From Deltaproteobacteria bacterium (GTDB lineage: Bacteria > Myxococcota_A > Polyangia > Fen-1088), in NCBI GenBank assembly GCA_033763315.1, contig JANRKS010000011.1, positions 32,001-96,000 of the forward strand: DNA of 64,000 bases, read 5' to 3'. This document shows positions 21,138 through 54,201 of this stretch, piece after piece. The notes below the pieces were generated by a model that saw nothing but the letters and a program-made list of their open reading frames with translations, did not search any database and was not told where the DNA came from. Position numbers and translations under genes: made by a program. How positions within the stretch are numbered: the stretch's first letter is position 1; every line of letters begins with the position of its first letter.

Positions 21138-21144
21138 TCTGTCG

Positions 21145-27128: not shown

Positions 27129-27140
27129 TAAACCATTCAT

Positions 27141-27386
27141 ATGCGGACCACAGTAGACCTTCCGGAGGCTTTGTTGCGGCAGGCAAAGCAGCATGCCGCG
27201 AAGGCGGGCGTCACGTTGGCCGCGCTTATAGAAGATGCCTTGATGGAAAAGCTCCATCGACGTTCAGTCAGCAAAACGGACGCGGCGTTTGTGTTCCCCG
27301 TGTACCGCGGACCCGCAGGCGCCAAAACCGGCGTCGATTTGCGCAGCAACCGTGAGGTACTGGATCTGCTGGACGCGGACGAATGA
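27141..27386 (+). CDS. vapB: RHH-type antitoxin
   Basis: MRTTVDLPEALLRQAKQHAAKAGVTLAALIEDAL; ATGA overlap with PIN gene. Confidence 0.85.
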   Translation: MRTTVDLPEALLRQAKQHAAKAGVTLAALIEDALMEKLHRRSVSKTDAAFVFPVYRGPAGAKTGVDLRSNREVLDLLDADE

Positions 27387-27805: not shown

Positions 27806-27925
27806 GGCGCTGACGAAACGCGCCGAGGTCATCTTGCACAGACCGTTCGGACTCTGAATCCTAACGCCAATAAGCGATCGCGCCACGTTGTGTTTCACGC
27901 AGCCTTCATGCAAAGATTCTAGGCA

Positions 27926-28792
27926 ATGCCATCCGTCGACCCGCGCATCATCGATCTTTACAACGAGTATGTTCACTCGTCGCTGCCGCGCAGAGACTTC
28001 ATCACTCGCCTCGCCGAATTAGCTGGTGGCGCTGCGGCCGCAGCCGCGGTTTTGCCTCTCATCGAGCCCAATTACGCCTACGGCAGGCAAGTCGACGAAA
28101 AAGACAAGCGCATCACAACGAGCTACGTCGAATACGCGGCACCCTCAGGCAAAGTTAAAGCTTACCTGGCGAAGCCAAAGCGCAAGGGCAAGTTTGCGGC
28201 CGTGCTTGTCATTCACGAAAACCGCGGCCTCAACGCTCACATTGAAGACGTGGCCCGCCGGGTTGCGCTTCAAGGCTACCTGGCATTGGCTCCGGATGGC
28301 TTGAGCTTGGCCGGCGGCGCGCCGGTTGATCAAGAAGCCGCGCGTGACCTCTTCGCTAAAAACGATCGCGAGCGAATCACGGCCGACGTTGTGGCGGGTC
28401 TACCTTTCCTCGCAAGCCACCCTGATGGTGACGGCAAGATTGGCACCGTAGGCTTTTGCTACGGCGGCGGCGTGGCGGTGCGGGCGGCGGTTGATGCCCC
28501 CTCGGTGCTTGCCGCGGTTTCGTTCTACGGATCGGCGTTGCCGTCGGAGGAGGTTCCGAAGTTGAAGGCGCCGGTGTTGGCCCACTATGCCGGCACCGAT
28601 GAACGCATCAACGCGGCGGTGCCAGAGTTTCGCAAAGCGCTTGAGGCCAACCAAGTCGCTTACAGCTTGAACTGGTACCCAGGAACCCAGCACGGCTTTC
28701 ACAACGATGCCAGTGAAGGCCGCTACAATGAAGCTGCTGCGAAATTGGCCTGGACGCGCACCGTTGCGTTTTTTAAAGCCTACCTGACGTAA
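27926..28792 (+). CDS. Dienelactone hydrolase family protein (YghX-like)
   Basis: RRDFI twin-Arg-like N-terminus, IHENRGLNAHIEDVARR, GFCYGG, QHGFHND. Confidence 0.9.
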   Translation: MPSVDPRIIDLYNEYVHSSLPRRDFITRLAELAGGAAAAAAVLPLIEPNYAYGRQVDEKDKRITTSYVEYAAPSGKVKAYLAKPKRKGKFAAVLVIHENRGLNAHIEDVARRVALQGYLALAPDGLSLAGGAPVDQEAARDLFAKNDRERITADVVAGLPFLASHPDGDGKIGTVGFCYGGGVAVRAAVDAPSVLAAVSFYGSALPSEEVPKLKAPVLAHYAGTDERINAAVPEFRKALEANQVAYSLNWYPGTQHGFHNDASEGRYNEAAAKLAWTRTVAFFKAYLT

Positions 28793-28857
28793 GCCATCGC
28801 GTTGACACAGAGCGAGCGTTAGACCCTCTCTGTGCCAGCACGATGCCAAAATTGTTC

Positions 28858-31320: not shown

Positions 31321-31378
31321 AGAAGACTCCTTCAGGTCGGTTGCTTTTCCCCGCAAAGGCGAGGGGTCGTGGCCGGAC

Positions 31379-31394
31379 TGCACGTGTAGTGCCA
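31379..31394 (-). promoter_or_regulatory. Sigma-54 promoter of the TonB-dependent receptor
   Basis: Minus strand TGGCAC-TACAC-GTGCA. Confidence 0.75.
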
Positions 31395-31445
31395 AGTCGT
31401 CGATGATTCGTGACTCGGCTTTACAACCGCGGAGCGAGGGCGTGC

Positions 31446-41097: not shown

Positions 41098-41418
41098 TCA
41101 GGCGGCCGCCAGGGCTGTCTTGGATTCAAGACGACGACTGAGAAGATCCTTTAATTTGGAGACCCCCAGCTTCCGCAGCAGCACCACAGGCCTGCCGGCT
41201 TCCTTGGCCAGCTTCCGTGTCTGAATCACGGCGAAATGGCTGTTGACGTCGGTGACGATGACCAGCACATCGGACCGTTCAACCAGGTTTTTCAGCCGGT
41301 GGTACGCGGGCCCGCTGGCCACGCCTGCATGTACTTCCAGCTCGTGCCCAGCATCATGCGCCACGTGGCGCAGCCGCTCCTCTAATCGATCCAATCCTCC
41401 AACGATACCGATATGCAT
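41098..41418 (-). CDS. DUF2325-like protein
   Basis: MHIGIVGG..SDVLVIVTDVNSH..AKEAGRPVV. Confidence 0.8.
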   Translation of the reverse strand: MHIGIVGGLDRLEERLRHVAHDAGHELEVHAGVASGPAYHRLKNLVERSDVLVIVTDVNSHFAVIQTRKLAKEAGRPVVLLRKLGVSKLKDLLSRRLESKTALAAA

Positions 41419-41452
41419 TGTCTCTTCTGCCTTTCCGTCCAAACTTTCCGTC

Positions 41453-41468
41453 AGCAAGTGCAATGCCA
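41453..41468 (-). promoter_or_regulatory. Sigma-54 promoter of the DUF2325-like gene
   Basis: Minus strand TGGCAT-TGCAC-TTGCT, near consensus. Confidence 0.75.
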
Positions 41469-41491
41469 ATTGCGTCGCGGCGGAAATTGCG

Positions 41492-41519
41492 CTAGACACA
41501 ATGTCTAGTTTAGCAGACA
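41492..41519. promoter_or_regulatory. Overlapping palindromes upstream of sfnR (candidate XRE-cupin operator)
   Basis: CTAGACA-N3-TGTCTAG (41492-41508) and TGTCT-N8-AGACA (41502-41519). Confidence 0.5.
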
Positions 41520-41530
41520 AGTGCAGCGCC

Positions 41531-42610
41531 ATGACAATTTTAACTCTCCCCAACGCCGAAGGCCGCTCGCTGACGGTACGCGCCAAGGCGCTGGTATTCG
41601 AAGACGAGCGCTCCCGCGCTTTGTTGCGCCGCCTTGAGCAGGTGGCGCCGAGCCACGCCACTGTCCTCGTGATCGGCGAGACCGGCACGGGTAAAGAAAT
41701 TGTGGCTCGCCACATCCACGAGTTGTCACCACGCGCCAGGGGGCCGTTTGTTGCCGTCAATTGCGGCGCTTTCAGCGAAACGCTGGTCGAAAGCGAGTTG
41801 TTCGGCCATGAAAAAGGCTCCTTCACGGGCGCCGTCAACACCAAGCAGGGCTGGTTTGAGGCCGCGGATGGGGGCACGCTGTTCCTCGATGAGATCGGCG
41901 ATCTTCCCGCCGCCGTGCAAGTGAAGCTGCTGCGCGTGTTGCAAGAGCGGGAGGTGGTGCGCGTGGGATCGCGCCAACCCATTCCGATCAACGTGCGTCT
42001 CGTTGCGGCCACCAACGTCAAGCTTGAACAGGCCGTCGCCGAGGGGCGTTTCCGCGAAGACTTGTATTACCGCTTGCGCGTTGCTGTCCTCGAGTTGCCC
42101 TCCCTGCGGGAACGGCCTGGCGACATCTTGCCGCTCGCTCGTTTTTTTCTAGAGCAGTACCGTCACCGTTTGGGCATCGCCGAGGTGAAAGTAACGCGCG
42201 AGGGTGAACGTCGGCTGTTGGCGCATAGCTGGCCTGGCAACATTCGCGAACTTGAAAACGTGATCCATTCCGCGCTTCTCGTGTGCCACGAAGGCTTGCT
42301 CGACGCGAAGGATCTGAACATCGGCACGGCCATCAGCCGTGAGGTCCCTACCGTTGGCAAAGAAACCAACCCCATCGAAAAGTTGGAAGCGGCGCTCTTG
42401 GCTTTGTTTGATGAAAACCCGCCCGAGCTGCACGCGAAGATTGAAGAGACGGTGATGCGCGTCGCGTTCGATTACTGCCACCGCAACCAACTGCAGACGG
42501 CACGGCTGCTTGGCATAAGCCGCAACATCGTGCGCGCGCGCTTGATCCAAATCGGCGAGCTGGCCGGCGTGTTGCGAGGCAGTGGTTCTGTGGAAGTGGC
42601 GGAGGACTGA
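41531..42610 (+). CDS. sfnR: Sigma-54 enhancer-binding protein lacking an N-terminal sensor domain (SfnR-like)
   Basis: ILTLP..VFEDERSRALL N-terminus, GETGTGKE, ESELFGHEKGSFTGA, WPGNIRELEN, C-terminal CHRNQLQTARLLGISRN. Confidence 0.8.
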   Translation: MTILTLPNAEGRSLTVRAKALVFEDERSRALLRRLEQVAPSHATVLVIGETGTGKEIVARHIHELSPRARGPFVAVNCGAFSETLVESELFGHEKGSFTGAVNTKQGWFEAADGGTLFLDEIGDLPAAVQVKLLRVLQEREVVRVGSRQPIPINVRLVAATNVKLEQAVAEGRFREDLYYRLRVAVLELPSLRERPGDILPLARFFLEQYRHRLGIAEVKVTREGERRLLAHSWPGNIRELENVIHSALLVCHEGLLDAKDLNIGTAISREVPTVGKETNPIEKLEAALLALFDENPPELHAKIEETVMRVAFDYCHRNQLQTARLLGISRNIVRARLIQIGELAGVLRGSGSVEVAED

Positions 42611-42647: not shown

Positions 42648-43352
42648 TTAGCCTGCGTCTTCGTTGTATGAGATCACGAGGTAGACGAGTGCCGGAAGCA
42701 AGCCCGGATTGCGGAATCGATGTGTCTCGTCTGAGTGAAACAAAAGCGCGTCCCCTTCGCCCAGCGTGAATGTTGCGGCACCAACATCAACATCAAGCGT
42801 GCCACGCACCACGATCAAGTTGTTGGTGGTTCCGAGCGGATGCGACAGCGGTTGGTCCTGGGCCTTGGGCGCCAGTTCCATCTCGTGAAACTCAACTTTG
42901 CGTGGCTCATCCGTCGGAAAGAGGGGGCGGGACACGAAGCTGCCATCCGCGTTTGTAAGGCGTTTGGCTTGCGAGGCGCGCAACACCACGGGGCCCGTAC
43001 GCTCCTGCGTGCTGACGAGCGTGGAGAAACTGATGTCGAGCGCGCGCGCCACTTTCCACAGCAGTGAGATCGTGGGCGTGCTTTGGCCGAGCTCAATCTG
43101 CGAAAGCATCGCGCGGCTCACGCCAGAGCGTTGCGCCAGGCGCTCAAGCGAAAGCCCCCGTCGCAGGCGCAGGCGGCGCAGGTTCACGCCAACAGCGATC
43201 GTGAGTTCTCGCCCCTCTTCGGCCAGCGCGACCCTGGCGTCGGGGCGCTGGCGGCCTCTGGGAGACGATCCGCTGCGGGCGCGTGGGTCCGAAGACAGTG
43301 CATCGCGGTTCACAGACGGGTCATCGCTGGCTTGGGATTTGGAAGAAATCAC
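42648..43352 (-). CDS. XRE-HTH + cupin transcriptional regulator (SutR/PuuR-like)
   Basis: LSLERLAQRSGVSRAMLSQIELGQSTPTISLLWKVARAL; C-terminal cupin. Confidence 0.9.
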   Translation of the reverse strand: MISSKSQASDDPSVNRDALSSDPRARSGSSPRGRQRPDARVALAEEGRELTIAVGVNLRRLRLRRGLSLERLAQRSGVSRAMLSQIELGQSTPTISLLWKVARALDISFSTLVSTQERTGPVVLRASQAKRLTNADGSFVSRPLFPTDEPRKVEFHEMELAPKAQDQPLSHPLGTTNNLIVVRGTLDVDVGAATFTLGEGDALLFHSDETHRFRNPGLLPALVYLVISYNEDAG

Positions 43353-43474: not shown

Positions 43475-43521
43475 TGCTGCTCCAGCAGCAGCCGAGAAGC
43501 AATGGTGCTGCCTTGGCAGCA
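43475..43521. promoter_or_regulatory. Tandem perfect palindromic activator sites
   Basis: TGCTGCTCCAGCAGCA (43475-43490) and TGCTGCCTTGGCAGCA (43506-43521), 31 bp apart. Confidence 0.78.
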
Positions 43522-43568
43522 GCGTACGCCGGCGCTAGCACCAGCAACCACGGCACTCATTAGATGTA

Positions 43569-43602
43569 TGGCGAATATCGTGCCGATGGCGTGCTTCCTG
43601 CA
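43569..43602 (+). promoter_or_regulatory. Two candidate sigma-54 -24/-12 elements
   Basis: TGGCGA-ATATC-GTGCC (43569-43584) and TGGCGT-GCTTC-CTGCA (43587-43602). Confidence 0.55.
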
Positions 43603-43688
43603 TTCGGCTGGTCGTGGGCGCATGTATGTCAACGTCTGCCCCTTGGGTGCGCACCCTGGAAAAATGTTTCAGCGACAACGATTCGGTC

Positions 43689-43722
43689 TTGAAAGAAGGA
43701 ATAATGTCTACTATAACGAACA
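43689..43722 (+). promoter_or_regulatory. Sigma-70-type promoter overlapped by a candidate operator
   Basis: TTGAAA-N17-TATAAC; imperfect palindrome TGTCTACTATAACGAACA (43705-43722) covers the -10. Confidence 0.55.
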
Positions 43723-44900
43723 ATATGAAAGGTCGCCACAGCGCGCGGGGCCCAAGCCTCCGGAATCGAATGATGGCCAAGTTAGGCGCCGTTGGTGCCG
43801 CGTCGGTTCTTTCGTTGGGTATCTCGGCTCAAGCAGGAGCCGTTGAGTGCAACGCCGTTGAGCCGGCTTTGGTGAACCCGATCTACGGCTTGGGTGGCAG
43901 CGCCACGCGGCCCTACATCAAAGAGCTGGCCACAGTGCTGGCGAACCAAACGCCTGCCGTCACCGTGCTCTACAACGACTCGGGTGGCGCTTGCACAGGG
44001 CCTTACGCTCTGATTCAAGGCGACAAAGCCTCGGGCTCTTTCCGCTACTGGGACAAGACGGGCAAAGAGTCCACGTGCACCTGGACCGCTGGCAGCGCCT
44101 CAGCGCCACCCGTTGCGTTCGCCAACATGGGTAACTCGATCGGTTTGTGCAAGACCAACGGGCAGGCCACTGTGCTCCCCCAGACGATTGCCGACGTGGA
44201 AGGTCCTGTGGTGGGCGTGAGCGTGATCGTGCCCAAAGCGAGCTCGGAGAACAGCATCAGCACCGAGGCTGCTTACTTTGTCTTTGGGTTTGGCAAAGCG
44301 GGGCAGGTCTCTCCGTGGCTCGATGACAATCTTATCATCCGCCGGAATGAGAATTCATTCGTGCAACTGTTCTTGGCCAAGGCAACAGGCGTTCCAGAGA
44401 CGAAGTTTAAAGGCATCGACGCGAAGACAAACCAGGCGTCGATTCAGTTGGTCAAGGACGCCGCCACCCCCAACGCAGCGATTGGCTTTGCCAGCTCCGA
44501 TGTTGCCGACGACAACCGCGCCTCCGTTAAGACGCTGGCCTACCAACACATAGGTCAAAGCTGCGGTTATCTGCCGGATTCGTCTAACACAGCGTTTGAT
44601 CGCAAGAACATCCGCGATGGCCACTACTACTTGTGGACCGCCCAACACTACTTCGCTTTCAAAGGCGCCACCGCGGGCACCTACGCTGATCCCAACGTTG
44701 AGAAGTTTTTGGGCCTGGCCACCGGCAAGGCCGTTCCACAGGGGGTTGATTGGATCAACCTCGTAAAGAAGTCGGGCGAAGTTCCTCGGTGCGCGATGAA
44801 AGTGTGGCGCGATGGCGACTTGGGCGAGCTTTACTCGTACCAAGATCCAAGCCCCTGCAGCGCTGCCTATGACGCGGCCCCAGGCAAAGTGGTGCAGTAA
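43704..44900 (+). CDS. Secreted PstS-like substrate-binding-fold protein with probable disulfides
   Basis: Signal peptide ending near AQA; GGSAT, SGGACTG, IIRRNENS, AIGF, IRDGHYYLW; start 43704 or 43725. Confidence 0.7.
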   Translation: MSTITNNMKGRHSARGPSLRNRMMAKLGAVGAASVLSLGISAQAGAVECNAVEPALVNPIYGLGGSATRPYIKELATVLANQTPAVTVLYNDSGGACTGPYALIQGDKASGSFRYWDKTGKESTCTWTAGSASAPPVAFANMGNSIGLCKTNGQATVLPQTIADVEGPVVGVSVIVPKASSENSISTEAAYFVFGFGKAGQVSPWLDDNLIIRRNENSFVQLFLAKATGVPETKFKGIDAKTNQASIQLVKDAATPNAAIGFASSDVADDNRASVKTLAYQHIGQSCGYLPDSSNTAFDRKNIRDGHYYLWTAQHYFAFKGATAGTYADPNVEKFLGLATGKAVPQGVDWINLVKKSGEVPRCAMKVWRDGDLGELYSYQDPSPCSAAYDAAPGKVVQ

Positions 44901-44930
44901 GCGCCGTTCATCAACTGGAAGAACACGACG

Positions 44931-45308
44931 ATGAAAACGAATCTTTCTGCATTAAAAATTGTTGGCTTTTTGGCCGTGACATCTGCTCTTGGGGGCCTGG
45001 CCCTGGTGGCCTGCTCCGATAGCGACAACCCCACACCAACGGATGGCGGCACGATAGACGGTGGCATCATTGTCATCGACACGGGCACGCCGAAAGACGC
45101 GCCTCCCGCCGCTGACACCTTGGTGCCAGACGCCTCGGGGGACACAAGCGGCGACACCAGTGGCGGTTTCGTGAATGGCTGCTGGGTAGGTCCGGCAACG
45201 AATAGCAACCAAGCCTTAAACGCTTGCACCGACGGCACCTGCACACCCTTCAACAACGTGCAGCGCTTGCCGCTTTACAACAACGGAAACCTCCCCGCCG
45301 TGCCCTAA
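44931..45308 (+). CDS. Small lipoprotein with C-terminal three-Cys domain
   Basis: Lipobox LVAC; Asp/Gly linker; LNACTD..C.PFNN..RLP. Confidence 0.75.
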   Translation: MKTNLSALKIVGFLAVTSALGGLALVACSDSDNPTPTDGGTIDGGIIVIDTGTPKDAPPAADTLVPDASGDTSGDTSGGFVNGCWVGPATNSNQALNACTDGTCTPFNNVQRLPLYNNGNLPAVP

Positions 45309-45329
45309 CAAAAAACGCTAGCCAAGTGC

Positions 45330-45370
45330 AAAGCCCTTGGCGACATACGCCAAGGGCTTTTTGTTTTCTT
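45330..45370 (+). terminator. Intrinsic terminator / stabilising hairpin inside the operon
   Basis: AAAGCCCTTGGCG-ACATA-CGCCAAGGGCTTT followed by TTGTTTTCTT. Confidence 0.8.
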
Positions 45371-45389
45371 ATTTTTCTCACCCCGCTCA

Positions 45390-46997
45390 TTGAGGCATCG
45401 CTTGTTCAAGGTAAATAAATTTGCCGCCACCGCATTGTTGGCGATCTTGCCCCACAGTGTGGCGTTGGCCCAAGCCAAAGGCGCGCGTCCGGCGGCGCCC
45501 GCGAAAGCGGCCAAGGCCGACGCGGCCAGCGACGAACTCGAGGTGCCGGCGGGCGCGGCGCCCTCGTTGGACGCGCAACTCGCGGAGGAGAAGCGCAGCC
45601 GCGAAGCCGCGGTGGCGGATGTGGCCGCGCAGCTCGCCGCGCAGAAGCAGGCGCTTGAAAGCCGCTTGGCCGAAGCGCAAGCCAAAGCGGCGGCGAATGA
45701 GGCAAAGCTGCAAGCCTTATCGGATGCGATGCAAGCTGAACGCGCGCAGCGCGCGGCCACACCCGCCCCACCGCCCCCCGTATGGCAAGGCGGACCCATC
45801 AGCGATGTCGAGGGCTACTTGCCCCTGCCCCAAGCGGAGGGCTTGGTTGTGCGCGGCTTTTTGCAGGCGCAGTACGAACACTTCGCGGGGTCTGAAGATC
45901 AATTGCAGCAAGGCGGGCGTTATCTAAACGAAGATCGTTTCACCGTTCGCCGGGCCCGCGTGCGCTTGGATCGCCGCTGGCAGTATTCGGCCATCAGCGT
46001 TGAGTTGGATGGCAACACCACGCGACGTTTGTCGTTCGGTTTGCGGCGCGCCGAAGGCAGTTTGTTTTGGGAAGGGAAGGGCGCCTCAAGGCCGCTGCTG
46101 GCGCTCAGCGCCGGTTTGATCGATGTGCCGTTCGGGTTTGAATTGCCGCAATCCGCGCGGCAACGTTTGTTCGCTGAACGGTCGGTGGTTTCGGAGGCGT
46201 TCTTTCCTGGACAGCCCGACCTCGGCGCACGCCTGACAGGCCGCTGGCGCGTGTTCAACCTTGCGGTTGCTGTCGTCAACGGCGAGCCTGTGGACGAACG
46301 CGAAAGCGCGCCCTTCCGCGGCGATCCCAACCAGGCCAAAGACGTCGTAGGCCGCGTGTCGGTGGATGCGCCTGTGTCGCCCGCCTTCACGATTGCCGGT
46401 GGCGCTTCGTTCCTCAGTGGCAAGGGCTTTCACCCGGGCACCGACGCGACGAAGTCCGGGACGCAATGGAACGACGTCAATCAAAATAGCTTGATCGATC
46501 TCGGCGAAATCACACCCGTGGCCGGCACCTCGGCTGTGCCCTCCGAAAACTTCAAACGTTGGGCGTTGGGGGCCGATCTGCACAGCTCGCTGCGCACAGG
46601 ATACGGTTACACGCGCCTGTTTGCCGAAGCCGTGGTGGGCAGCAACATGGATCGCGGCTTGTTTGTGGCGGATCCCATCGCCAACAGCTTCGATGTGCGT
46701 GAGTTCGGCTACGCGGTGTCGCTTACGCAGGATTTGAAGAACCTCGGCATCTTGGGTGTGCGGCTGGACAGCTACAACCCCAACGCTGATTTCTTTGACA
46801 GCCGCAGTGGCAAATTGGTGCCCACGAGGCAAACCATCACAACGGTGTCGCCGGTGGTGGGCGTCAATGTTGGCGCGCACGCTCGGTTGAGTGCGCAATA
46901 CGATTTCATTCGTGACAAGTACGCGCGCGACGATCGCGGTGTGCCCACGGATTTCTCAAACAACCGCTTCACGCTTCGTTTGCAGGTGGATCTATGA
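45390..46997 (+). CDS. Outer membrane porin (OprO/OprP-like) with N-terminal coiled coil
   Basis: Signal peptide, Ala/Glu/Gln coiled coil, FTVRRARVRL, GLIDVPFGFE, ERS, KDVVGRV, C-terminal LRLQVDL. Confidence 0.75.
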   Translation: MRHRLFKVNKFAATALLAILPHSVALAQAKGARPAAPAKAAKADAASDELEVPAGAAPSLDAQLAEEKRSREAAVADVAAQLAAQKQALESRLAEAQAKAAANEAKLQALSDAMQAERAQRAATPAPPPPVWQGGPISDVEGYLPLPQAEGLVVRGFLQAQYEHFAGSEDQLQQGGRYLNEDRFTVRRARVRLDRRWQYSAISVELDGNTTRRLSFGLRRAEGSLFWEGKGASRPLLALSAGLIDVPFGFELPQSARQRLFAERSVVSEAFFPGQPDLGARLTGRWRVFNLAVAVVNGEPVDERESAPFRGDPNQAKDVVGRVSVDAPVSPAFTIAGGASFLSGKGFHPGTDATKSGTQWNDVNQNSLIDLGEITPVAGTSAVPSENFKRWALGADLHSSLRTGYGYTRLFAEAVVGSNMDRGLFVADPIANSFDVREFGYAVSLTQDLKNLGILGVRLDSYNPNADFFDSRSGKLVPTRQTITTVSPVVGVNVGAHARLSAQYDFIRDKYARDDRGVPTDFSNNRFTLRLQVDL

Positions 46998-47968
46998 AAC
47001 GGTCACTCTTCGTTGTGACGGTGCTCGGCTTTGCCGCGTGCGGTGGCGTGGAATCGGGCTCAGGCCTCGATCAGCCGCTCGTATTGCACCCGGCAAGTCC
47101 CAAGTTGCCAGTGCCTGTCTTCAAAGAAGGCCCGCTGCCAGGCACACCGCCGAAGGCGGTGGTCAGCGACGCTGAACCGCTGCGCATCACCGGGTTCGAA
47201 GATACGTCGGGCCTGGGCTTCGTCGGCGAATCGGGCCGCTCGCTCGCAGGGCGGGCCAGCCCCGATGCGGTCGCGGTGGCGTTGACGCTGGCCAATCAAG
47301 GCACGGGGTATTGGTTGTTGCCCGTCGCCGGTCCCGATCCCACCAGCAACAATGAACTGACGTGGAAGGTGTTGTTGGATGTCACCGATGTGGCCATCGC
47401 TGGTCCCGGTAAGATTCGCGTCGTCGCGATCGGTGCCGATGGCAGCGCCGGCACGCAGACGGATGCGTCGTTCTGCGTAGGCAGTGCCGTGCCCGACAAC
47501 TTGAACTCGTGCAACCCAAGCGTGGCGCCGCCCGCCGCGGTTATCTCTTTGAATTGGGACACGGCTGCCGACTTGGATCTGGTGGTGATCACGCCCACGG
47601 GCCAAGTGGTGAGCCCCAAATCGCCCAACACAGCCGGCAAAGGTGCCAGCGCCGAACAGATCGCCGCGGGAGGCGTGTTGGATTTGGACGCGCAAGCCGG
47701 GTGCCGCTTCTTCGGTCGCCGCCGCGAGAACCTCGTGTTTCAAAAGCCACCGCAACCAGGCCTTTACAACTTCTACGTCAATGTCTTTGACGGCTGCCGG
47801 GCCAGCCAAGCGCACTACGGCTTGGGTGTGTACACCCCGCAAGCCACAGGCCCGGGCACAAGCCGCGTGGTGGAACAGCAAATCATCCGCGGCCAAGTGC
47901 TTACGGCCACGGCCAATGGCGGCGCAGGCAAAGCGCCCGGACTCTTTGTCGGCTCGTTCGTTTTCTAG
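46994..47968 (+). CDS. Lipoprotein with YfaP-like C-terminal motif
   Basis: Lipobox FAAC; SLNWDTAADLDLVVITPTG, LDLD, RENL. Confidence 0.75.
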   Translation: MKRSLFVVTVLGFAACGGVESGSGLDQPLVLHPASPKLPVPVFKEGPLPGTPPKAVVSDAEPLRITGFEDTSGLGFVGESGRSLAGRASPDAVAVALTLANQGTGYWLLPVAGPDPTSNNELTWKVLLDVTDVAIAGPGKIRVVAIGADGSAGTQTDASFCVGSAVPDNLNSCNPSVAPPAAVISLNWDTAADLDLVVITPTGQVVSPKSPNTAGKGASAEQIAAGGVLDLDAQAGCRFFGRRRENLVFQKPPQPGLYNFYVNVFDGCRASQAHYGLGVYTPQATGPGTSRVVEQQIIRGQVLTATANGGAGKAPGLFVGSFVF

Positions 47969-47986
47969 GTTGGAAGGAACATCGTC

Positions 47987-48718
47987 ATGATCGATAAACT
48001 CTTACAAATTGCACTGCTCGGCAGCACGTGGGTGCTGTACCTCCTCTTGTTCTTGTCGGTGGTTTCGATCGCCGCGATGGTCGAGCGCTGGTGGTTCTTC
48101 CGCGTTCACAGCGACGACGGCGAAGCGTTGCGTGGACGCATTTCCAAAGCGCTTCTGGCAGGCAAGTGGAGCGAAGCCGAAGCCGCTTTTGCCGCCAGTC
48201 GTGGTTTGCCTGCGAAGATCATCTCGCCCGCGCTCGCCTGGCGCGACGGCGGCGCGGAAGCCGTCACCGACGCCGTCGACAGCGAGCTGGGGCGCGTGCG
48301 CAAGCAGCTTGAGCGCGGCGCCTCGCTGTTAGGCACGCTCGGCAACAACGCGCCGTTTATCGGTCTCTTCGGAACCGTCTTAGGTGTTATCGAAGCGTTC
48401 CATCATCTTGGCGAAGGCGCTTCTAAATCAGCGATGAGCAACGTCATGAGCGGCATCGCTGAAGCGTTGGTGGCCACGGGCGTGGGCATCTTCGTGGCTT
48501 TGCCCGCCGTTGTGGCGTTCAACTTGATTCAAAAGCGCATCGGCGAGGTGGAAGCCGAGACAACGTCGCTGTCGAAGTTGGTGACCGCCTACCTCAAGAA
48601 GGCGCAGCGTGAAGGCGTGGTGATCCCCGCGTCGCACGCGGTCGCCGTTGAGCCGAACGCGCAGGCCGCGGCTGAAACCAACAACCCCGGCAACGCGCGC
48701 GTTGCTTTGGCTGATTAG
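47987..48718 (+). CDS. exbB: ExbB/TolQ proton channel
   Basis: NNAPFIGLFGTVLGVI, GIAEALVATGVG. Confidence 0.92.
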   Translation: MIDKLLQIALLGSTWVLYLLLFLSVVSIAAMVERWWFFRVHSDDGEALRGRISKALLAGKWSEAEAAFAASRGLPAKIISPALAWRDGGAEAVTDAVDSELGRVRKQLERGASLLGTLGNNAPFIGLFGTVLGVIEAFHHLGEGASKSAMSNVMSGIAEALVATGVGIFVALPAVVAFNLIQKRIGEVEAETTSLSKLVTAYLKKAQREGVVIPASHAVAVEPNAQAAAETNNPGNARVALAD

Positions 48719-48726
48719 GACGTCAC

Positions 48727-49128
48727 ATGGCTGGTACAAACGCAGGCCGCGGCCCGATCGTTGGCATCAACGTCACCCCTATGGTTGACGTCGTGTTGGT
48801 GTTGTTGGTCATCATGATGGTGTCGGCCACATACATTGTGGCGCAGAGCCTCAAGGTGGAATTGCCGAAGTCGTCCACGTCGGACGAATCCACGCCCACG
48901 CTGGCGGTTGTGACCATCACCAAAGAGAAGACGCTGCTGTTCAACGAGCAGCCTGTCACCGAGAACGATCTCAAACAAAAGCTGGAAGGCGTATACGCCA
49001 AAGACAACGATGTGAGTTTGGTGGTCAGCGCCGATCAAGAGGCGTATCACGGCAACGTCGTGCACGTGATCGATTTGGCCAAGCTGATTGGCATCACCAA
49101 GTTCGCGATCAACGTGGAACGCAACTAG
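48727..49128 (+). CDS. exbD: ExbD/TolR protein
   Basis: INVTPMVDVVLVLLVIMMV, SAD..HGNVVHVIDL. Confidence 0.92.
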   Translation: MAGTNAGRGPIVGINVTPMVDVVLVLLVIMMVSATYIVAQSLKVELPKSSTSDESTPTLAVVTITKEKTLLFNEQPVTENDLKQKLEGVYAKDNDVSLVVSADQEAYHGNVVHVIDLAKLIGITKFAINVERN

Positions 49129-49142
49129 CGGCCGGTTCATTC

Positions 49143-49826
49143 GTGCGTATCTCGATCATCATCTACGGCGTGAGCCTGGGGCTGCACGCGGCGCTCGCGG
49201 CCTCGGTCGTGTCGCTCAAGCCTGCGGTCAAAAAGCGGCCGCCCACGGCGATCGCGATACGCGAGGTCAAGCGCAAGCCCGCCACGCCGCCGCCCGAGCC
49301 ACCGCCGCCTGAGGCACCCAAAGCCGAGCCACCGCCGCGCAAGGCGCCTCCTGTGGCCCGCGCCGCGACGCCCCCCCCGGCCGCCGCGCCCGCCGCTGCG
49401 CCTGTGGCGGCCGTTCCTGATTTTGGTTTGGCGCTGGGCGGAGGCGTGGGCGCGGGCCTCGCGGTGCCACCCCCACGCGAGGGGACAACTCACGAGCCCA
49501 CACAAGCCAAGCCCAAAGTGCTGGAAGCCGCGCCGGCACAAGGCGGGTGCAACGAAGATCCTGTGAAACCCAAGCCCGTGAACATCGTTCAACCTTCGTA
49601 TGCCAGCGAAGAAGCGCGCGCCGCGGGTATCGAAGGCAAAGTTCGCATTGAAATCACCGTGGGCGTGGACGGCACGGTCAAGAACGCCAAGTTGATCTCG
49701 GGCCTCGGGTACGGCCTGGACGAAGCCGCGCTTGAAGCCGCACGCGCTTCCACGTTCGAGCCGGGCACGCGGTGCGGGCAGCCGTCTGAGACCACGTTCA
49801 CCATGGGCATCCGCTTTTCGCTTTAA
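49143..49826 (+). CDS. tonB: Energy transducer TonB
   Basis: SLGLH TM motif, Pro-rich linker, ARAAGIEGKV..GLDEAALEAA. Confidence 0.9.
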   Translation: MRISIIIYGVSLGLHAALAASVVSLKPAVKKRPPTAIAIREVKRKPATPPPEPPPPEAPKAEPPPRKAPPVARAATPPPAAAPAAAPVAAVPDFGLALGGGVGAGLAVPPPREGTTHEPTQAKPKVLEAAPAQGGCNEDPVKPKPVNIVQPSYASEEARAAGIEGKVRIEITVGVDGTVKNAKLISGLGYGLDEAALEAARASTFEPGTRCGQPSETTFTMGIRFSL

Positions 49827-49833
49827 CCAGTCA

Positions 49834-52572
49834 ATGAAATTTTCCCACCGCCTACAGTCACTTGTGTGGCTGCTGATCTTCTCTTCGGGTGCGTCTGTTG
49901 TGGCGCCACAACGCGCGCGCGCCGCCGATGAGGCACCAGCCCCGCCGGCGCCGAAGCTGACCAAGCCTCCGGCTTTGCTCACGTTTGTTGAAGCCGTTTA
50001 TCCCGAGGAAGAAAAAGCCGCGAACCGCAGCGCTTCGGTTGTGTTGCAAGTGGTGATCGGCGCCGATGGCAAAGTCACGGAAGCCACAGTCTCGCAATCG
50101 GCTGGGGCGGCCTTTGACGCTGCGGCGCTGGCTGCCGTGAAAGCGTTCGTGTTCAGTCCGGCGGAGATCGATGGCGTGCCGTCGCCCATCCGCATTCTTT
50201 ATAAGTACGACTTCGTGCTCAAGGCCGCCGTCAAAACCACGGCTGATCTTTCGGGCATCGTTCGCAACCGCAAAACCAAGAAGCCCTTGCCCAATGTGGC
50301 TGTCACGGTGGGACAGGCCAAGACCACCACAGGGCCCGATGGGCGTTTCGAGGTGTTGGATGTGCCGCCCGGAAAAGTGGCGGTCGCGTTTGCGGGGCCC
50401 GGAATCACGGCGTCACGGACGGAAGAAACGCTTGAAGCCGGTAAGAAGACGGACGTCATCTATGACGTGTCACCAGAAGAGGTGGTGGATCCCGCCGACA
50501 AAGACGATCTGGAAATCGTCGTCATCGCGCCGCCCTTGCAAAAGGCCGTGGCGTCGATCCAAATCGCGGCCGATCAAGGGCGCAAACTTCCGGGCACACA
50601 AGGCGACGTGTTGAAGGTCGTTGAAAGTTTGCCGGGCGTGGCGCGCTCGTCGGCGGGCTCGGGCCAACTGGTGGTGTGGGGTGCCTCGCCGCAAGACACG
50701 CGCGTTTACATCGATGGCGTCCGCATCCCCGCCCTTTACCACACAAGCGGTTTGCGTTCGGTGGTGGCCGGCGAATTGGTGAAGAACATCGAACTTGTGC
50801 CGGGCGGCTATGGCGCTTCCTATGGCCGCGGCTTGGGTGGCATCGTGCTTGTGGAAAGCGCTGCTCTAGAGGGCAATGGAACACACGGCGCGGCCACCGT
50901 TGATTTGCTGGACGCCGCGGCCACCGTGCGCACGCCCTTGTCTTCAAAGTGGCGCCTCGCGCTTTCGGGCCGCTGGAGCTACCTCGACCGCGTGCTTGAA
51001 ACCGTCAGCGATGAAGACGTGGGTGCGTTTTATCCGATCCCGCGTTACCGCGATGGGCAAGTGCGTTTGGCGTATGTGCCGTCAAAGCGCGAGCAGATTG
51101 AATTTGTGAGCTTGGGCTCCAGTGACAAAGTCACGCGCACCGTGCAAAGCCCTGACCCGGCACTCACCAAGCGCGATGATCGCGACACGAACTTTTACCG
51201 TTTCTACATGCGGTATAGCCGCGATCTCGACGATGGCGCCCGCGTCTCGGTTGTGCCGTTCTTTGGCCAAGATCGCACGCGTCTGCAAAACCAGTACGGC
51301 GGACCCGTGGCGACACTGGACACCACGTCCACCATCTATGGCTTTCGCGGCAATTGGCGCGCACGTGTGGCGCAACTGCTAACCGTTACGTTGGGCTTGG
51401 ACGCCGAAGTTGTGCAGGCGGCGGTGTCACGTACGGGATCACCCACCTTGCCGCCGCGCGAAGGTGATTTGCGCGTGTTCGGCCAATTGGCTCCAAACGA
51501 GCTCAATTCCGATACGTGGAACGCTTTTGTGGCCAGCGCCGCGCCTTACGCCGAGCTTGACATCACGCCGCTTGGCGACCGTCTGCATATTATCCCCGGC
51601 ATTCGTGTGGAACCTTATGTGGTCGGCGCCAGCCGGCAAACCCCGCGCGTGGGCGATACACCATCGATTGGTTTGCTCACGCAAGACACCACGGTGCAAC
51701 CGCGTCTGACCGCGCGTTTCGATGCGACGAAGTGGATTACCTTTTCAGCCTCTTACGGCCAGTATCGACAGGCTCCCCAGGCCGAAGATCTTTCGGCCGT
51801 GTTTGGCAACCCACGCCTTACCCTTTCGGAAGCCCGCCACCTGGTGTTTGGCGCAAACATCCGCTTGGGCGAAAAGCTTTCCGCAGAACTGACAGCGTTT
51901 CGCTCCGACAGCCACAACCTAGCCGTGCGCAGCCCGCGCGAACAGCCCTTCTCAGGTGAGGCGTTGTTGCCGCTTGGCAAAGGCAAGACGGTTGGTGGCC
52001 AAGTGCTGCTCAAACAAACGTTCTCCAAAAGCTTGTTTGGCTGGGTCAGTTACAGCCTGTTGCGTTCACAGCGCATCGATCCGGTGGCCAGCGATCAGTG
52101 CAGCGATCCCGCACTGCCCTTGGCCGACTGCCGCTTTCCCAACAGCACGGTGTTCAGCTATACGGTCAACCGCACCCGCTTGTTTGACTACGATCAAACG
52201 CATCTGCTTACCGCCTTGGCGTCATGGGACATCGGCCGCGGTTTCAACTTGGGCGCGCGCTTTCGCTATGCCACGGGGTACCCACGAACGCCGGTTGTCG
52301 GATCGTTTTATGACGCGCGCCGCGACGCTGTGCAGCCGCTGTTTGGCGCACAAAACAGCATTCGCATCCCGGCCTTCTTGCAGGCCGACGTGCGGCTCGC
52401 GAAAACGCTGACGCTTGCGAAGGGCAGTGATTTGGAGCTGTACCTCGATGTGCAAAACATCACGAACCGGCAGAACGCCGAGGAAATTGCATACAGCCCT
52501 GATTACGCGCGCAAAGCTCGCATCACAGGGTTACCCCTTTTGCCCGTGGTTGGCGCGAGGCTCACATGGTGA
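49834..52572 (+). CDS. TonB-dependent receptor with N-terminal TonB C-terminal-like and Ig-like domains
   Basis: YPEEEK..FDAAALAAVKAFVFSPA; TGPDGRFEVLDVPPG; plug PGTQGDVLKVVESLPGVAR; FDYDQTH; C-terminal W. Confidence 0.9.
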   Translation: MKFSHRLQSLVWLLIFSSGASVVAPQRARAADEAPAPPAPKLTKPPALLTFVEAVYPEEEKAANRSASVVLQVVIGADGKVTEATVSQSAGAAFDAAALAAVKAFVFSPAEIDGVPSPIRILYKYDFVLKAAVKTTADLSGIVRNRKTKKPLPNVAVTVGQAKTTTGPDGRFEVLDVPPGKVAVAFAGPGITASRTEETLEAGKKTDVIYDVSPEEVVDPADKDDLEIVVIAPPLQKAVASIQIAADQGRKLPGTQGDVLKVVESLPGVARSSAGSGQLVVWGASPQDTRVYIDGVRIPALYHTSGLRSVVAGELVKNIELVPGGYGASYGRGLGGIVLVESAALEGNGTHGAATVDLLDAAATVRTPLSSKWRLALSGRWSYLDRVLETVSDEDVGAFYPIPRYRDGQVRLAYVPSKREQIEFVSLGSSDKVTRTVQSPDPALTKRDDRDTNFYRFYMRYSRDLDDGARVSVVPFFGQDRTRLQNQYGGPVATLDTTSTIYGFRGNWRARVAQLLTVTLGLDAEVVQAAVSRTGSPTLPPREGDLRVFGQLAPNELNSDTWNAFVASAAPYAELDITPLGDRLHIIPGIRVEPYVVGASRQTPRVGDTPSIGLLTQDTTVQPRLTARFDATKWITFSASYGQYRQAPQAEDLSAVFGNPRLTLSEARHLVFGANIRLGEKLSAELTAFRSDSHNLAVRSPREQPFSGEALLPLGKGKTVGGQVLLKQTFSKSLFGWVSYSLLRSQRIDPVASDQCSDPALPLADCRFPNSTVFSYTVNRTRLFDYDQTHLLTALASWDIGRGFNLGARFRYATGYPRTPVVGSFYDARRDAVQPLFGAQNSIRIPAFLQADVRLAKTLTLAKGSDLELYLDVQNITNRQNAEEIAYSPDYARKARITGLPLLPVVGARLTW

Positions 52573-53615
52573 AACGTATCGGCTTGGCTTTGCTTTTGGT
52601 GTCCGCGTGCGTGCCTGATCTCGAGGATACGTCGGCGTTGGTGTCGGGCCCGCGCTTGTTGGCCGTGGCGATGGATCCACCGGAGGCACCCGCGGGGGCG
52701 CAGGTCACGTGGCGTGCGCTTGACGTTACCCCCGAAGGCCCGGCGGCGCGACCGATTGATTGGGCGCTTTGCCAGGTGCGCAAGCCCGTCAGTGAAGCGG
52801 GCCCCATCAACCCCACGTGCTTGGTCGCCCTCGGGTCCGCGACGTTGTCTCCTCTGGGCACGGGGCCTGTGGTTACAGGCCGCTTGCCCAGCAACGCGTG
52901 CCAAGTGTTTGGTCCCGAAACGCCGTCGCCAAAGCCCGGCGAGCCACAAGCGCGTGAAGTGGATCCCGATAGCACGGGGGGCTTTTATCAGCCGTTGCGC
53001 CTTCGCTTGGGTGACACCGAAAGCTACGGTACGTACGACGCGCGTGTGCGTTGCGCCTTGAACAATGTGAACCCGCAACAAGCCAACGAGCTGCAATCGC
53101 GCAGCCATCCCAACACCAATCCCATTCTCACCAACTTCGCCGTTGTGAACGAAGATGGTTCGGCGATCACGCTCGTGCCCACCGAAGTGGCTGACGAGGC
53201 GAGGGCATTGATCCCCGCAGGCCAGCCGCTTCGCTTTCGCGCCACCTGGGGCGCGTGCCCGGCCGTGGACGCGTGCGGTGATGGCTTTTGCGGCATCAGC
53301 GAAACGGTTGGTAAGTGCGCTGCTGATTGCCAGAACCCCAAGCCGTGCGGCGGTGCCGAGCCTTACCTGTGGTTCAACCCAGCCACGCGCGAACTTGTGC
53401 AACGCAAAGAGGTGATGCGCGCTTCGTGGTTCGCGAACGCCGGCACATTCGCAACGGGACGCACAGGTCGTAGCGAGGATGAGGCCGCCCTCACGAACAC
53501 GGAAAACACATGGACCCCACCTGCGGCACCCGGCACGGTGGCGCGGTTGTGGATCGTCTTGCGTGACGACCGCGGTGGGGCCACATGGCAGTCTTTCGTG
53601 TTCGAGTTACGTTAA
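52566..53615 (+). CDS. Cys-rich lipoprotein associated with the TonB-dependent receptor
   Basis: Lipobox VSAC; PRLLAV..PPEA, NTNP, CGDGFC..ET...C..DC, LRDDRGG. Confidence 0.8.
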   Translation: MVKRIGLALLLVSACVPDLEDTSALVSGPRLLAVAMDPPEAPAGAQVTWRALDVTPEGPAARPIDWALCQVRKPVSEAGPINPTCLVALGSATLSPLGTGPVVTGRLPSNACQVFGPETPSPKPGEPQAREVDPDSTGGFYQPLRLRLGDTESYGTYDARVRCALNNVNPQQANELQSRSHPNTNPILTNFAVVNEDGSAITLVPTEVADEARALIPAGQPLRFRATWGACPAVDACGDGFCGISETVGKCAADCQNPKPCGGAEPYLWFNPATRELVQRKEVMRASWFANAGTFATGRTGRSEDEAALTNTENTWTPPAAPGTVARLWIVLRDDRGGATWQSFVFELR

Positions 53616-53624: not shown

Positions 53625-54038
53625 TTAGGATGCGGCGGTCCACTCACCCTTCAGGGCCGTACACTGCTTTTGCGCGGTTGTGGCCGTGGCCGTGGCGTCT
53701 TTGCCGTAATACAGGTTGTTGACTTCCTTGTCGGTGCCTTTGCCGATCACGCACGTGCCAACCCAATCCGCCTTTGGACACGCATTGGCGCTGAATGTGG
53801 TTTCGCCCAGCGTCTTGCACATCGGTTCCACTGTGGCGGCAGTGAAACTTGCACCTATGAACTCCTTGCAGAAGCCGCCCTTTGAATTGTCGCAGCTGCC
53901 TATGACCTTGGCCGCGCCACTGGCGCCACCGCCGCCGGTGCCCCCGGTGCCATCGCTGTTGCTGTCGCTGCCACCGCAAGCTGCCGCCGCGCCCACGGCC
54001 AAAGTGATACAAAATACTAAGCCAATACGTTCAAACAT
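53625..54038 (-). CDS. Small Cys-rich lipoprotein
   Basis: GGAGG SD; lipobox AAAC; Gly linker; six further Cys. Confidence 0.75.
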   Translation of the reverse strand: MFERIGLVFCITLAVGAAAACGGSDSNSDGTGGTGGGGASGAAKVIGSCDNSKGGFCKEFIGASFTAATVEPMCKTLGETTFSANACPKADWVGTCVIGKGTDKEVNNLYYGKDATATATTAQKQCTALKGEWTAAS

Positions 54039-54201
54039 CACTGCCTCCTGGCGAAGAGTAAAACGCCACCTTAGCACTAACCTTGGCGGGTTCTGTCAAA
54101 AACAACACACTCAACGTGACTGGTTTTACGCCAACCCGTTGATCTTCGTCGGCCGCTCGTCTAGGAGTAGGGCAGTCAATCTTCAGTGAGGAGCGGGGTA
54201 T

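Follow-up and report, generated by a model that had tools for sequence, protein, structure and literature searches.

A sigma-54-linked envelope operon with a PstS-fold binding protein and its own Ton system, a candidate front end for sulfur scavenging in Polyangia

What does a cell take up with a secreted binding protein, a porin and a TonB-dependent transporter that are encoded side by side, with no inner-membrane permease among them? The question is raised by nine genes, here named g1 to g9, in a 64,000-nucleotide stretch of DNA from a Deltaproteobacteria bacterium of the class Polyangia (contig JANRKS010000011.1 of assembly GCA_033763315.1, positions 32,001 to 96,000). This whole stretch is called the window, and positions refer to it unless another contig or locus is named. 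On balance, the operon is probably a sigma-54-controlled outer-membrane and periplasmic front end for anionic sulfur sources, which is linked to sulfur limitation and feeds the importers CysPTWA or SsuABC. An earlier note on this DNA, made without database searches, had read it as a TonB-energised scavenging system for sulfate or organosulfur oxyanions; the regulon and the genome context speak for this reading, and we infer its substrate part, along with an inward direction of transport, what g1 binds, what g8 carries and that sulfur limitation induces the genes.

The nine genes are encoded on the plus strand between positions 43704 and 53615 and are tightly packed, with gaps of -7 to 81 base pairs (bp); from g1 to g9 the intergenic distances are 30, 81, -4, 18, 8, 14, 7 and -7 bp. 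The genes (protein lengths in amino acids, aa) are as follows.

43704-44900, plus strand: g1, secreted PstS-fold binding protein, 398 aa
44931-45308, plus strand: g2, small lipoprotein with the lipobox LVAC
45390-46997, plus strand: g3, OprO/P-family porin, 535 aa, with an Ala-rich N-terminal coiled-coil region and a barrel of about 385 aa
46994-47968, plus strand: g4, lipoprotein with a FAAC lipobox, weakly YfaP/DUF2135-like, its start overlapping the g3 stop
47987-48718, plus strand: g5, ExbB/TolQ-family proton channel (PF01618, 104.8 bits)
48727-49128, plus strand: g6, ExbD/TolR (PF02472, 98.5 bits)
49143-49826, plus strand: g7, TonB with N-terminal anchor, Pro-rich linker and TonB_C (PF03544, 62.1 bits)
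49834-52572, plus strand: g8, Oar-class TonB-dependent transporter with an extra N-terminal TonB_C-like domain, 912 aa
52566-53615, plus strand: g9, lipoprotein with a VSAC lipobox, 11 Cys and three Ig-like beta-sandwich domains, its start overlapping the g8 stop

A convergent gene (53625-54077) lies directly downstream of g9. Pfam assigns families above the cut-offs to four of the nine genes (g5, g6, g7 and g8), and no Pfam or NCBIfam family was found for g1, g2, g4 or g9 at E ≤ 0.01. The adjacent genes g5 to g7 match PF01618, PF02472 and PF03544, each above its cut-off; their NCBIfam equivalog scores are all below cut-off, so that Tol- and Exb-type proteins are not separable. None of the g1 to g9 proteins matched an ABC permease or ATPase family of Pfam or NCBIfam. 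Much of the earlier description of the locus is thereby borne out, namely the nine co-oriented and closely spaced genes, the small lipoprotein behind the binding protein, the ExbB, ExbD, TonB and TonB-dependent receptor labels, the Cys-rich lipoprotein at the operon end and the lack of an inner-membrane ABC permease.

In and near the promoter region, the following elements are found.

41243-42610, plus strand: sigma-54 enhancer-binding activator (Pfam Sigma54_activat, 239 bits)
42648-43352, minus strand: HTH_3 + Cupin_2 regulator (Pfam), divergent from g1
43475-43490: distal palindrome TGCTGCTCCAGCAGCA, a perfect TGCTGC-N4-GCAGCA and enhancer-like site
43506-43521: proximal palindrome TGCTGCCTTGGCAGCA, a perfect copy 31 bp from the distal one
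43587-43602, plus strand: sigma-54-type -24/-12 element TGGCGTGCTTCCTGCA, a pattern match with GG-N10-GC spacing

As described before, both palindromes upstream of the operon (43475 and 43506) are perfect. Of the sigma-54 elements suspected nearby, the better candidate is TGGCGTGCTTCCTGCA, probably the one previously placed 66 bp away: it starts 66 bp past the end of the proximal palindrome, and 81 and 112 bp start-to-start from the two palindromes. These sigma-54 and enhancer assignments are pattern-level motif matches. Within the window, 19 matches to the palindrome with at most two mismatches were obtained, compared with 8.2 expected, and 0 of 100 shuffles reached 19. The 7.63-Mb genome holds eight perfect palindromes, three of them in the window. 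When a pairing was defined as a palindrome with at most one mismatch and TGGC-N8-TGCW at 30-160 bp, five pairings were found genome-wide, all inside the window. They precede a RibB-like gene (4514), tonB2/exbB2 (26878, minus strand), an SsuA-like/monooxygenase operon (36903) and g1 (two sites); in addition, the gene of a second TonB-dependent receptor (28858-31395) has a palindrome with two mismatches 98 bp from its own sigma-54 element. The start-to-start distances between palindrome and element at the five promoters are 56, 99, 98, 46/78 and 81/112 bp. The window also holds SsuA-family, SsuC and SsuB proteins and two alkanesulfonate-monooxygenase-like proteins, and rpoN is present in the genome.

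The gene at 41243-42610 encodes the only sigma-54 activator in the window and is the presumed reader of the palindromes. Its AAA+ domain begins at about residue 118; for the ~117 aa before it no family match was obtained, and NCBIfam gave generic NtrC/NifA-type matches only, all below cut-off. Orthologues of the activator (52-66% identity, in three other genera) adjoin lux-like monooxygenase, SsuA-like and ABC genes. In 79.8 kb of these orthologue loci, three perfect palindromes were found in two genera (L126:7094, L127:8014 and L128:6955), each with a sigma-54-like element 56-122 bp away. Since activator orthologues elsewhere adjoin such genes and palindromes, the palindrome motif, the activator and sulfonate-type genes travel together.

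Other genes of this candidate regulon and its surroundings were observed along the window. The RibB-like gene (3,4-dihydroxy-2-butanone-4-phosphate synthase, 4458-5225) has a palindrome with one mismatch at 4458 and a sigma-54-like element at 4514, and its product may supply flavin to the FMNH2-dependent monooxygenases of the same regulon. A second Ton system (25283-31395) comprises TonB, an ExbB with 0 Met and 0 Cys and a siderophore-type receptor of 845 aa, and this system and its receptor are located behind palindrome and sigma-54 elements (26962/26878 and 31477/31394). Between these genes lie a YghX-type dienelactone hydrolase gene (27926-28792; 0 Met, 1 Cys) and, within the sulfur gene cluster, a VapC/PIN-family toxin gene (27383-27805; TIGR00028, 151 bits). 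Just upstream of the second Ton system, a Cys/Met-metabolism pyridoxal phosphate enzyme of the cystathionine gamma-synthase or methionine gamma-lyase type and two fused ABC exporter genes are encoded (19657-24841).

Relatives of g1 were collected in a scan of one genome per species. The scan yielded 201 relatives, and 80 loci (numbered with L) were kept with flanks of up to 10 kb. The gene g3 comes after g1 in 46 of the 80 loci, and 26 loci carry g1, g3, g4, g5, g6, g7, g8 and g9 in this order, among them loci of Labilithrix luteola, Chondromyces apiculatus, Minicystis rosea (two copies) and a Sandaracinus metagenome-assembled genome. A short form, g1-g3-g4-g8(-g9), without Ton genes was found in seven loci. 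The gene g2 is poorly conserved, with a tblastn match in nine of the 80 loci. In a tree of 82 g1 rows (quick IQ-TREE), two clades were obtained, each with 100% SH-aLRT support. Clade A (51 rows) contains the window g1 and most operons; clade B (31 rows) contains stand-alone g1 genes of Sorangium and Polyangium, a few operons and a paralogue from the window's own genome. The branch of the window g1 is long (0.96), which leaves its exact position within clade A uncertain.

Flanks of 21 clade-A loci and five clade-B operons were scanned with Pfam. Clear sulfur-assimilation genes are situated next to the operon in four of the 21 clade-A loci. In L042, divergent from g1, these are genes for a sulfate-binding protein (TIGR00971, 162 bits, cut-off 155.5), two sulfate permease subunits (TIGR00969, 243.6 bits, cut-off 240, and 237 bits) and a CysA-type ATPase. 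L030 encodes a CysA with C-terminal regulatory domain, a Rhodanese-HTH_3-Cupin regulator, an SrpI family 2A encapsulin shell (465.8 bits, cut-off 380) and a cysteine-synthase-like protein; L034 encodes an SrpI family 2A encapsulin, a cysteine-desulfurase cargo (793.5 bits, cut-off 800), a CDO_I protein and a Sulf_transp protein; and L028 encodes CysA and an Rrf2 regulator. Encapsulins of the SrpI type (family 2A) are reported to be up-regulated in sulfur-starved Synechococcus (PMC8049743). Weaker hints were a cysteine-synthase-like tblastn match in L038, an HTH-cupin regulator in L011 and a marginal HTS match in L053. Together with L011, L038 and the window, the four clear loci are spread over five or more subclades of clade A. 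In the 21 clade-A flanks, neither Pst or PhoU genes nor siderophore genes were found, and in the flanks of the five clade-B operons no sulfur genes.

A paralogue of the HTH-cupin regulator next to g1 is divergent from the genome's own cysPTWA genes, which lie with a CysQ-like gene at C32:561000-567000 (L104), and related Rhodanese-HTH-cupin or HTH-cupin genes are found near the operon in L030 and L011. The 100-bp intergenic region of L104 contains a 20-bp inverted repeat, GTCTTGTATTACAACAAGAC, with 7-bp arms and a 6-bp spacer, which may be the operator of the HTH_3+Cupin regulator. Taken together, the motif pairing restricted to the window, the loci of the activator orthologues and the sulfur neighbours in clade A support the proposed wiring of the operon into a sulfur regulon.

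A second signal for sulfur had been drawn from methionine (Met) scarcity. The earlier counts were all correct on recount: g8 (912 aa) contains a single internal Met and g4 none, while 2 Met and no Cys were counted in g3. As a baseline, a crude GC3-based set of 4521 open reading frames was used (mean Met 1.9%, mean Cys 1.2%). Among proteins of at least 200 aa, the lowest 1.5% in Met+Cys comprise 35 proteins genome-wide, of which eight are encoded between 25 and 53 kb of the window; the window set includes cytoplasmic enzymes, such as a monooxygenase with 1 Met and 0 Cys. The internal Met count is one in g8 and zero in the second receptor, compared with 7-10 in the other three TonB-dependent receptors of the genome, and the Met content of g8 (0.11%) is the minimum of its family. 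Between clades A and B, Met differs for g1 (0.55 vs 1.93%, p 9e-5) and for g4 (0.30 vs 1.38%, p 6e-5), with p values that are overstated owing to related rows. The genome's own sulfate-binding protein (341 aa), encoded beside the HTH-cupin paralogue, contains no Met and a single Cys. Low Met+Cys by itself was rejected as a marker of sulfur genes, since none of the 18 such proteins scanned outside the window is the product of a sulfur-assimilation gene.

The two clades of g1 lead to the first of the two main rival explanations, in which the operon belongs to a general oxyanion platform with paralogues tuned to sulfur, phosphorus or molybdenum/tungsten; the window copy would then be the sulfur member by regulation only and might bind any tetrahedral oxyanion. 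Up to six g1-family matches per genome are found, in keeping with such a diversification, as are the two well-supported clades. The second full operon copy of the genome (C2:186522-195473, L108) belongs to clade B and has ordinary Met contents (8-9 Met in the transporter, 5-6 in its g4 counterpart), and neither a palindrome nor a sigma-54 element was found upstream of it. A canonical pstS is located at C2:169373, about 16 kb from this copy. Directly upstream of two clade-B short operons, regulators with HTH_17 (excisionase-type) and PBP_like domains are encoded (L086:9048-9935 and L081:1639-2532), an architecture that we take to be that of tungstate- and molybdate-responsive regulators. A third clade-B operon, L055, has an OmpR-type response regulator alongside, whose best NCBIfam match is PhoB (245 bits, cut-off 296). 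These three clade-B loci hint at a module that is re-used for different oxyanions. They are, together with the labels of their regulators, the whole basis of the platform explanation, which moreover overlaps with a sulfur role of the window copy and does not exclude it; as an account in its own right we regard it as rather unlikely.

The stand-alone g1 genes of Sorangium and Polyangium were checked for an ABC partner and none was found. Five of them (L063, L065, L067, L084 and L085, in Sorangium and Polyangiaceae) adjoin Ser/Thr protein kinases. Since these neighbours are kinases and not transporters, a sensing role of this subfamily is suggested.

Phosphate is the other main rival. Classically, the Pho system pairs a PstS-type binding protein with an OprO/P-type porin, and the operon might thus be a module for scavenging phosphate, pyrophosphate or organophosphate, its sulfur context being coincidental or a matter of cross-regulation. 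The signal peptide of g1 ends in ISAQA and a lipobox is absent. Its homologues are Myxococcota proteins, a few of which are labelled phosphate-ABC substrate-binding by JGI. The previous PstS-like label is borne out by structure, although no Pfam or NCBIfam family matches: an AlphaFold2 (AF2) model from a 37-sequence alignment (predicted local distance difference test, pLDDT, 89.4) gave PstS proteins as top Foldseek matches (4lat, E 1.2e-12, TMt 0.80), and structure comparison with VIA gave 4ecf with Z 26.9 and a root-mean-square deviation of 2.2 Å over 252 residues. The best structural matches are all PstS or DING proteins. With hhalign, g1 aligned to the three canonical PstS proteins of its own genome at 89.7% probability (E 1.9e-6). 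A search of the genome with PF12849 found these three, which are encoded elsewhere, and matched neither g1 nor its paralogue; the g1 sequence had no match among solved structures at E ≤ 10, and its profile reached PstS only at E ~1.

The phosphate ligands of E. coli PstS are, in the numbering that we assume, Thr10, Ser38, Asp56, Arg135, Ser139 and Thr141. In the hhalign alignment, the equivalents of Thr10, Arg135 and Ser139 are kept in g1 as T67 (in a GS-x-T motif), R214 and S218, and R214 is invariant across the 37 sequences. By the same alignment, which is of low confidence here, the Ser of GGGSGTG (Ser38) is replaced by Ala and the Thr of SGT (Thr141) by Val; an equivalent of Asp56 is not evident in a region that aligns poorly. 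By sequence and model, g1 thus appears to be a divergent PstS relative with an altered pocket. The window g1 lacks a Cys-rich C-terminal tail of about 40 residues found in most homologues, and this loss lowers its Cys content to 1.98%, compared with a clade median of 3.31%.

The porin of the pair was assigned via its homologues. In Pfam and NCBIfam, the sole match of g3 is a sub-threshold DUF4407 (16.9 bits, cut-off 31.3), and its N-terminal 150 residues match only coiled coils in a search against solved structures. PF07396 is found in 15 of the 120 listed g3 homologues, which are ~50% identical over the barrel, and two listed homologues are named phosphate-selective porin, one of them 'phosphate-selective porin O and P [Minicystis rosea]'; g3 itself has no PF07396 match at E ≤ 0.01. 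An earlier label of OprO/P-like porin with a coiled coil is therefore upheld for the coiled-coil region and by the homologues with PF07396, but not by a profile match of its own, and g3 is best described as a divergent OprO/P-family porin on sequence grounds. For g4, previously called YfaP-like, no Pfam match was obtained, including YfaP/DUF2135; comparison of its Atlas model with DUF2135 clusters (TM 0.42/0.51 over 170 residues) provides a weak structural lead for this likeness.

The phosphate explanation thus draws on the fold of g1, its three kept ligand positions, PF07396 among the porin homologues and the PhoB-like regulator next to the clade-B locus L055. Set against it are, by the low-confidence alignment, two changed ligand positions and a third that is not evident, the lack of a PF12849 match in a genome that has three canonical PstS genes, and a g1 promoter architecture that is shared with ssu-like genes. 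A linkage to PstCAB permease and ATPase genes was found neither in the operon nor in the 21 clade-A or five clade-B flanks; in clade A, Pho genes are likewise missing from the flanks and sulfur genes recur beside the operon in several subclades. We consider a phosphate role unlikely.

Further candidates were considered on the basis of g8 and g9. In Pfam, g8 has a TonB_C (57.6 bits), a CarboxypepD_reg (PF13620, 38.3 bits, cut-off 32.3), a Plug (PF07715, 36.7 bits, cut-off 23.9) and a barrel domain (PF00593, 69.8 bits, cut-off 27), and a TonB-box-like stretch, DDLEIVVIAPP, of which DDLEIVV(I/x)AP is conserved in 27 orthologues. By these domains it is assigned to the Oar class of TonB-dependent transporters. 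The TonB_C-like domain (residues 54-129, window 49990-50220) is located ahead of CarboxypepD_reg and is present in all 27 aligned orthologues. The lipoprotein g9 belongs to a cluster of 940 members, all from Myxococcota. Its AF2 model (pLDDT 89.9) has three Ig-like sandwiches, fold searches gave generic Ig-like matches only (Foldseek TM ~0.2; VIA Z ≤ 8.8), and no SusD or other Pfam or NCBIfam family matched. A complex of g8 (residues 240-912) and g9 (residues 25-349), each entered as an alignment, was predicted with an ipSAE interface score of 0.85, compared with 0.01 for the best control; the mark used for this score is reached by 116 of 157 solved complexes and by two of 215 mismatched pairs. 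Prediction runs agree in at least 79% of contacts, the partner pLDDT is at least 81, and about 160 contacts are predicted. The segments of g8 at the interface (439-444, 532-561, 604-608, 699-710 and 825-837) are periodic and partly long, and include no plug residues. If they are extracellular loops, as we read them, g9 would be a surface-exposed lid. Because it is predicted to bind g8, g9 may work in a lid-like manner without belonging to a known lid family.

An export or envelope-remodelling device, in which g8 releases g1 or another protein under starvation, is one of two minor rivals and seems quite improbable to us. The CarboxypepD_reg extension of g8 is shared with Oar, the founding member of the class, which is reported to be needed for secretion of the protease PopC (PMC6434023). 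Nevertheless, neither a protease gene nor any evident cargo is encoded in the operon, uptake suits the cysPTWA/ssu context as well as the presence of a porin and a binding protein, and g9 is predicted on long barrel loops like the lids of importers. Iron or siderophore uptake is very unlikely: g8 has an N-terminus like that of MxcH, the myxochelin receptor (83 bits, cut-off 925), and its sole sequence match among solved structures is FepA (E 1.7e-4), yet the likeness to MxcH is confined to the TonB_C-like N-terminal domain, and no siderophore biosynthesis, Fur or iron ABC genes were found in any scanned flank.

Several observations weigh against a sulfur role and have to be set beside the evidence for it. 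Regarding g1, which descends from the PstS lineage, the 38 top VIA rows are all phosphate-binding proteins (Z 16.7-26.9), whereas among sulfate-binding proteins Z reaches only 15.5 (SubI) and 14.9 (Sbp), with 16.6 for ModA; the family of g3 is likewise that of the phosphate porins. Regarding the promoter, the g1 element lies ~3 bp (0.3 turn) off the helical phase of the other four, as had been cautioned before, and the palindrome was found upstream of g1 in none of the 80 other loci (at most one mismatch, within 500 bp). Regarding the neighbours, 14 of the 21 clade-A flanks contain no sulfur-related gene and three more (L011, L038 and L053) hold the weak hints listed above; gene calls in the genome and the flanks were crude (GC3-based), and related loci are not independent. 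Regarding composition, Met-poor barrels occur in both clades without a significant difference (g8, 0.47 vs 0.59%; g3, 0.77 vs 0.98%), Cys is abundant in g1, whose mature part has 7, and in g9, which has 11 (medians of 3.3%), and this fits sulfur sparing badly, and proteins low in Met+Cys elsewhere in the genome are mostly envelope proteins, the identifiable ones including HlyD (twice), LolA-like, MreC and DegP-like proteins. As a sulfur signal, Met scarcity is thus only partly valid: it tells the clades apart for g1 and g4, but not for g8 and g3.

The absence of the window palindrome from other loci can be seen together with a second kind of arrangement. Ten clade-A loci have a dedicated short activator divergent from g1 (58-68% mutual identity), and these loci carry repeats other than the window palindrome, which also counts against the sulfur reading. 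A de novo comparison of 11 g1 promoter regions revealed no shared palindrome; other repeats were found, of the ATAACGG type in L014, L015 and L017. TGGC-N8-TGCW occurs just upstream of g1 in eight of the ten loci with a dedicated activator, so that sigma-54 dependence appears to be a family trait, with an enhancer sequence that differs from that of the window.

Within the operon itself, expression is probably graded, as indicated by one more element.

45330-45370, plus strand: intrinsic-terminator-like hairpin with a 13-bp stem (8 G-C pairs) and U-rich tail

The strong hairpin (45330-45360) splits g1-g2 from g3-g9. The element folds at -25.5 kcal/mol, with z -3.9 and an equally good fold in none of 200 shuffles, and lies ~20 bp ahead of the start of g3. 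Because of this terminator, g3 to g9 are probably expressed by read-through, with an excess of g1 and g2, and how much binding protein is made relative to the membrane parts is probably set here. What had been called a nine-gene operon is better seen as one promoter with an attenuating terminator.

Returning to the preferred reading, a sulfur-linked front end would work as follows. The activator encoded at 41243-42610 would bind the two TGCTGC-N4-GCAGCA sites and open the -24/-12 promoter at 43587. The products of g1 and g2 would be made in excess, as the terminator after g2 would pass only part of the transcription on to g3-g9. Anionic sulfur compounds would cross the outer membrane on a passive route through the OprO/P-type anion porin g3, perhaps with the lipoprotein g4, and on an active route through the Oar-class transporter g8, with g9 as its cap and with energy from the ExbB-ExbD-TonB of the operon. 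A ligand of the tetrahedral oxyanion type would then be captured in the periplasm by the PstS-fold protein g1, and passage of the inner membrane would be left to transporters encoded elsewhere (CysPTWA, SsuABC). As substrates, inorganic sulfate or thiosulfate can be put forward tentatively, and sulfonates or sulfate esters more tentatively still. A bolder version, which we offer as speculation, is that the operon is the sulfur member of an unrecognised modular family of oxyanion-scavenging systems in Polyangia: sulfate, thiosulfate or another sulfur oxyanion would have replaced phosphate as the ligand of a PstS-derived binding protein, a lidded TonB-dependent transporter would pump this oxyanion in beside an anion porin, and sister paralogues, each with a regulator of its own, would serve for phosphate or molybdate/tungstate. 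If true, no earlier case of a simple inorganic oxyanion taken up with TonB energy would precede it.

To our knowledge, the passage of scarce sulfur oxyanions through the outer membrane of Gram-negative bacteria has hardly been studied. Known cargoes of TonB-dependent transport are iron chelates, B12, glycans, some metals and sulfate esters. Literature searches for TonB-dependent transport with a phosphate-selective porin in myxobacteria found nothing related, and none of the papers found joined sulfur starvation, a TonB-dependent receptor, sigma-54 and SfnR; PMC2996968 deals with iron receptors under chromate stress. The operon is a conserved module with two outer-membrane routes and a PstS-fold binding protein that is recognised by no family profile, and it adjoins core sulfate-assimilation genes in several lineages. 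If its sulfur role is true, the operon would define a so far undescribed entry point to sulfur assimilation in soil myxobacteria, and g1 would be a natural example of a PstS that changed its specificity; if it is false, the well-defined palindrome and sigma-54 regulon would still be a useful regulatory finding.

It had been stated earlier that the system has no characterised equivalent. This has to be modified, as SftP of P. putida S-313 is described as a TonB-dependent receptor for sulfate esters from the ats-sft locus (PMC7711191). Like g8 in the reading preferred here, SftP is a TonB-dependent outer-membrane receptor dedicated to a sulfur source. However, SftP stands as a lone receptor among sulfatase and ABC genes; its locus lacks the gene set of the operon, with no PstS-fold binding protein, OprO/P porin, lipoprotein lid or Ton genes of its own, and is not sigma-54 dependent. 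Regulation of ats-sft is presumably of the LysR/CysB type. SfnR-type sigma-54 activators reportedly control sulfone and sulfonate genes of Pseudomonas. The window activator resembles them in being a sigma-54 activator encoded amid sulfonate genes of the FMNH2-monooxygenase type, where enhancer-like sites precede -24/-12 promoters, but differs in that it matches no SfnR-specific NCBIfam model and has an N-terminal region of 117 aa without a family.

In Pseudomonas, PstS and OprP/OprO combine the same two folds, a class II oxyanion binding protein and an OprO/P-family anion porin, and oprP and pstS are under Pho regulation. In contrast, the operon has no PstCAB or PhoU, its g1 is outside PF12849 with several phosphate-ligand positions changed, and it is coupled to a TonB-dependent transporter in a sulfur and not a Pho context. 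Compared with the Sbp/CysP-CysTWA importer, which adjoins the operon divergently in L042 and is present in the window's own genome on C32, g1 is not of the SBP_bac_11 family and is closer to PstS (Z 26.9) than to Sbp or SubI (Z 14.9-15.5); CysPTWA is probably the downstream inner-membrane step.

Transporter-lipoprotein lid pairs are known from SusCD, RagAB, BtuB-BtuG and TbpAB. As in these, g9 is encoded beside its transporter and is predicted over long barrel loops; unlike them, it has three Ig-like sandwiches and no SusD family match. The Oar subclass is defined by a CarboxypepD_reg extension, a Plug with TonB box and a 22-strand-type barrel (PMC6434023). With Oar of Myxococcus xanthus, g8 shares this domain architecture and a dedicated Ton system nearby, but it has an added TonB_C-like domain before the extension and is paired with a downstream lipoprotein, and Oar acts in protein secretion while the context of g8 suggests uptake. 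Every part of the operon is of a known kind; what is new is the way in which they are combined, together with three unrecognised families (g1, g4 and g9) and a predicted pairing of transporter and lid, and g8 and g9 offer a tractable transporter-lipoprotein pair outside Bacteroidota.

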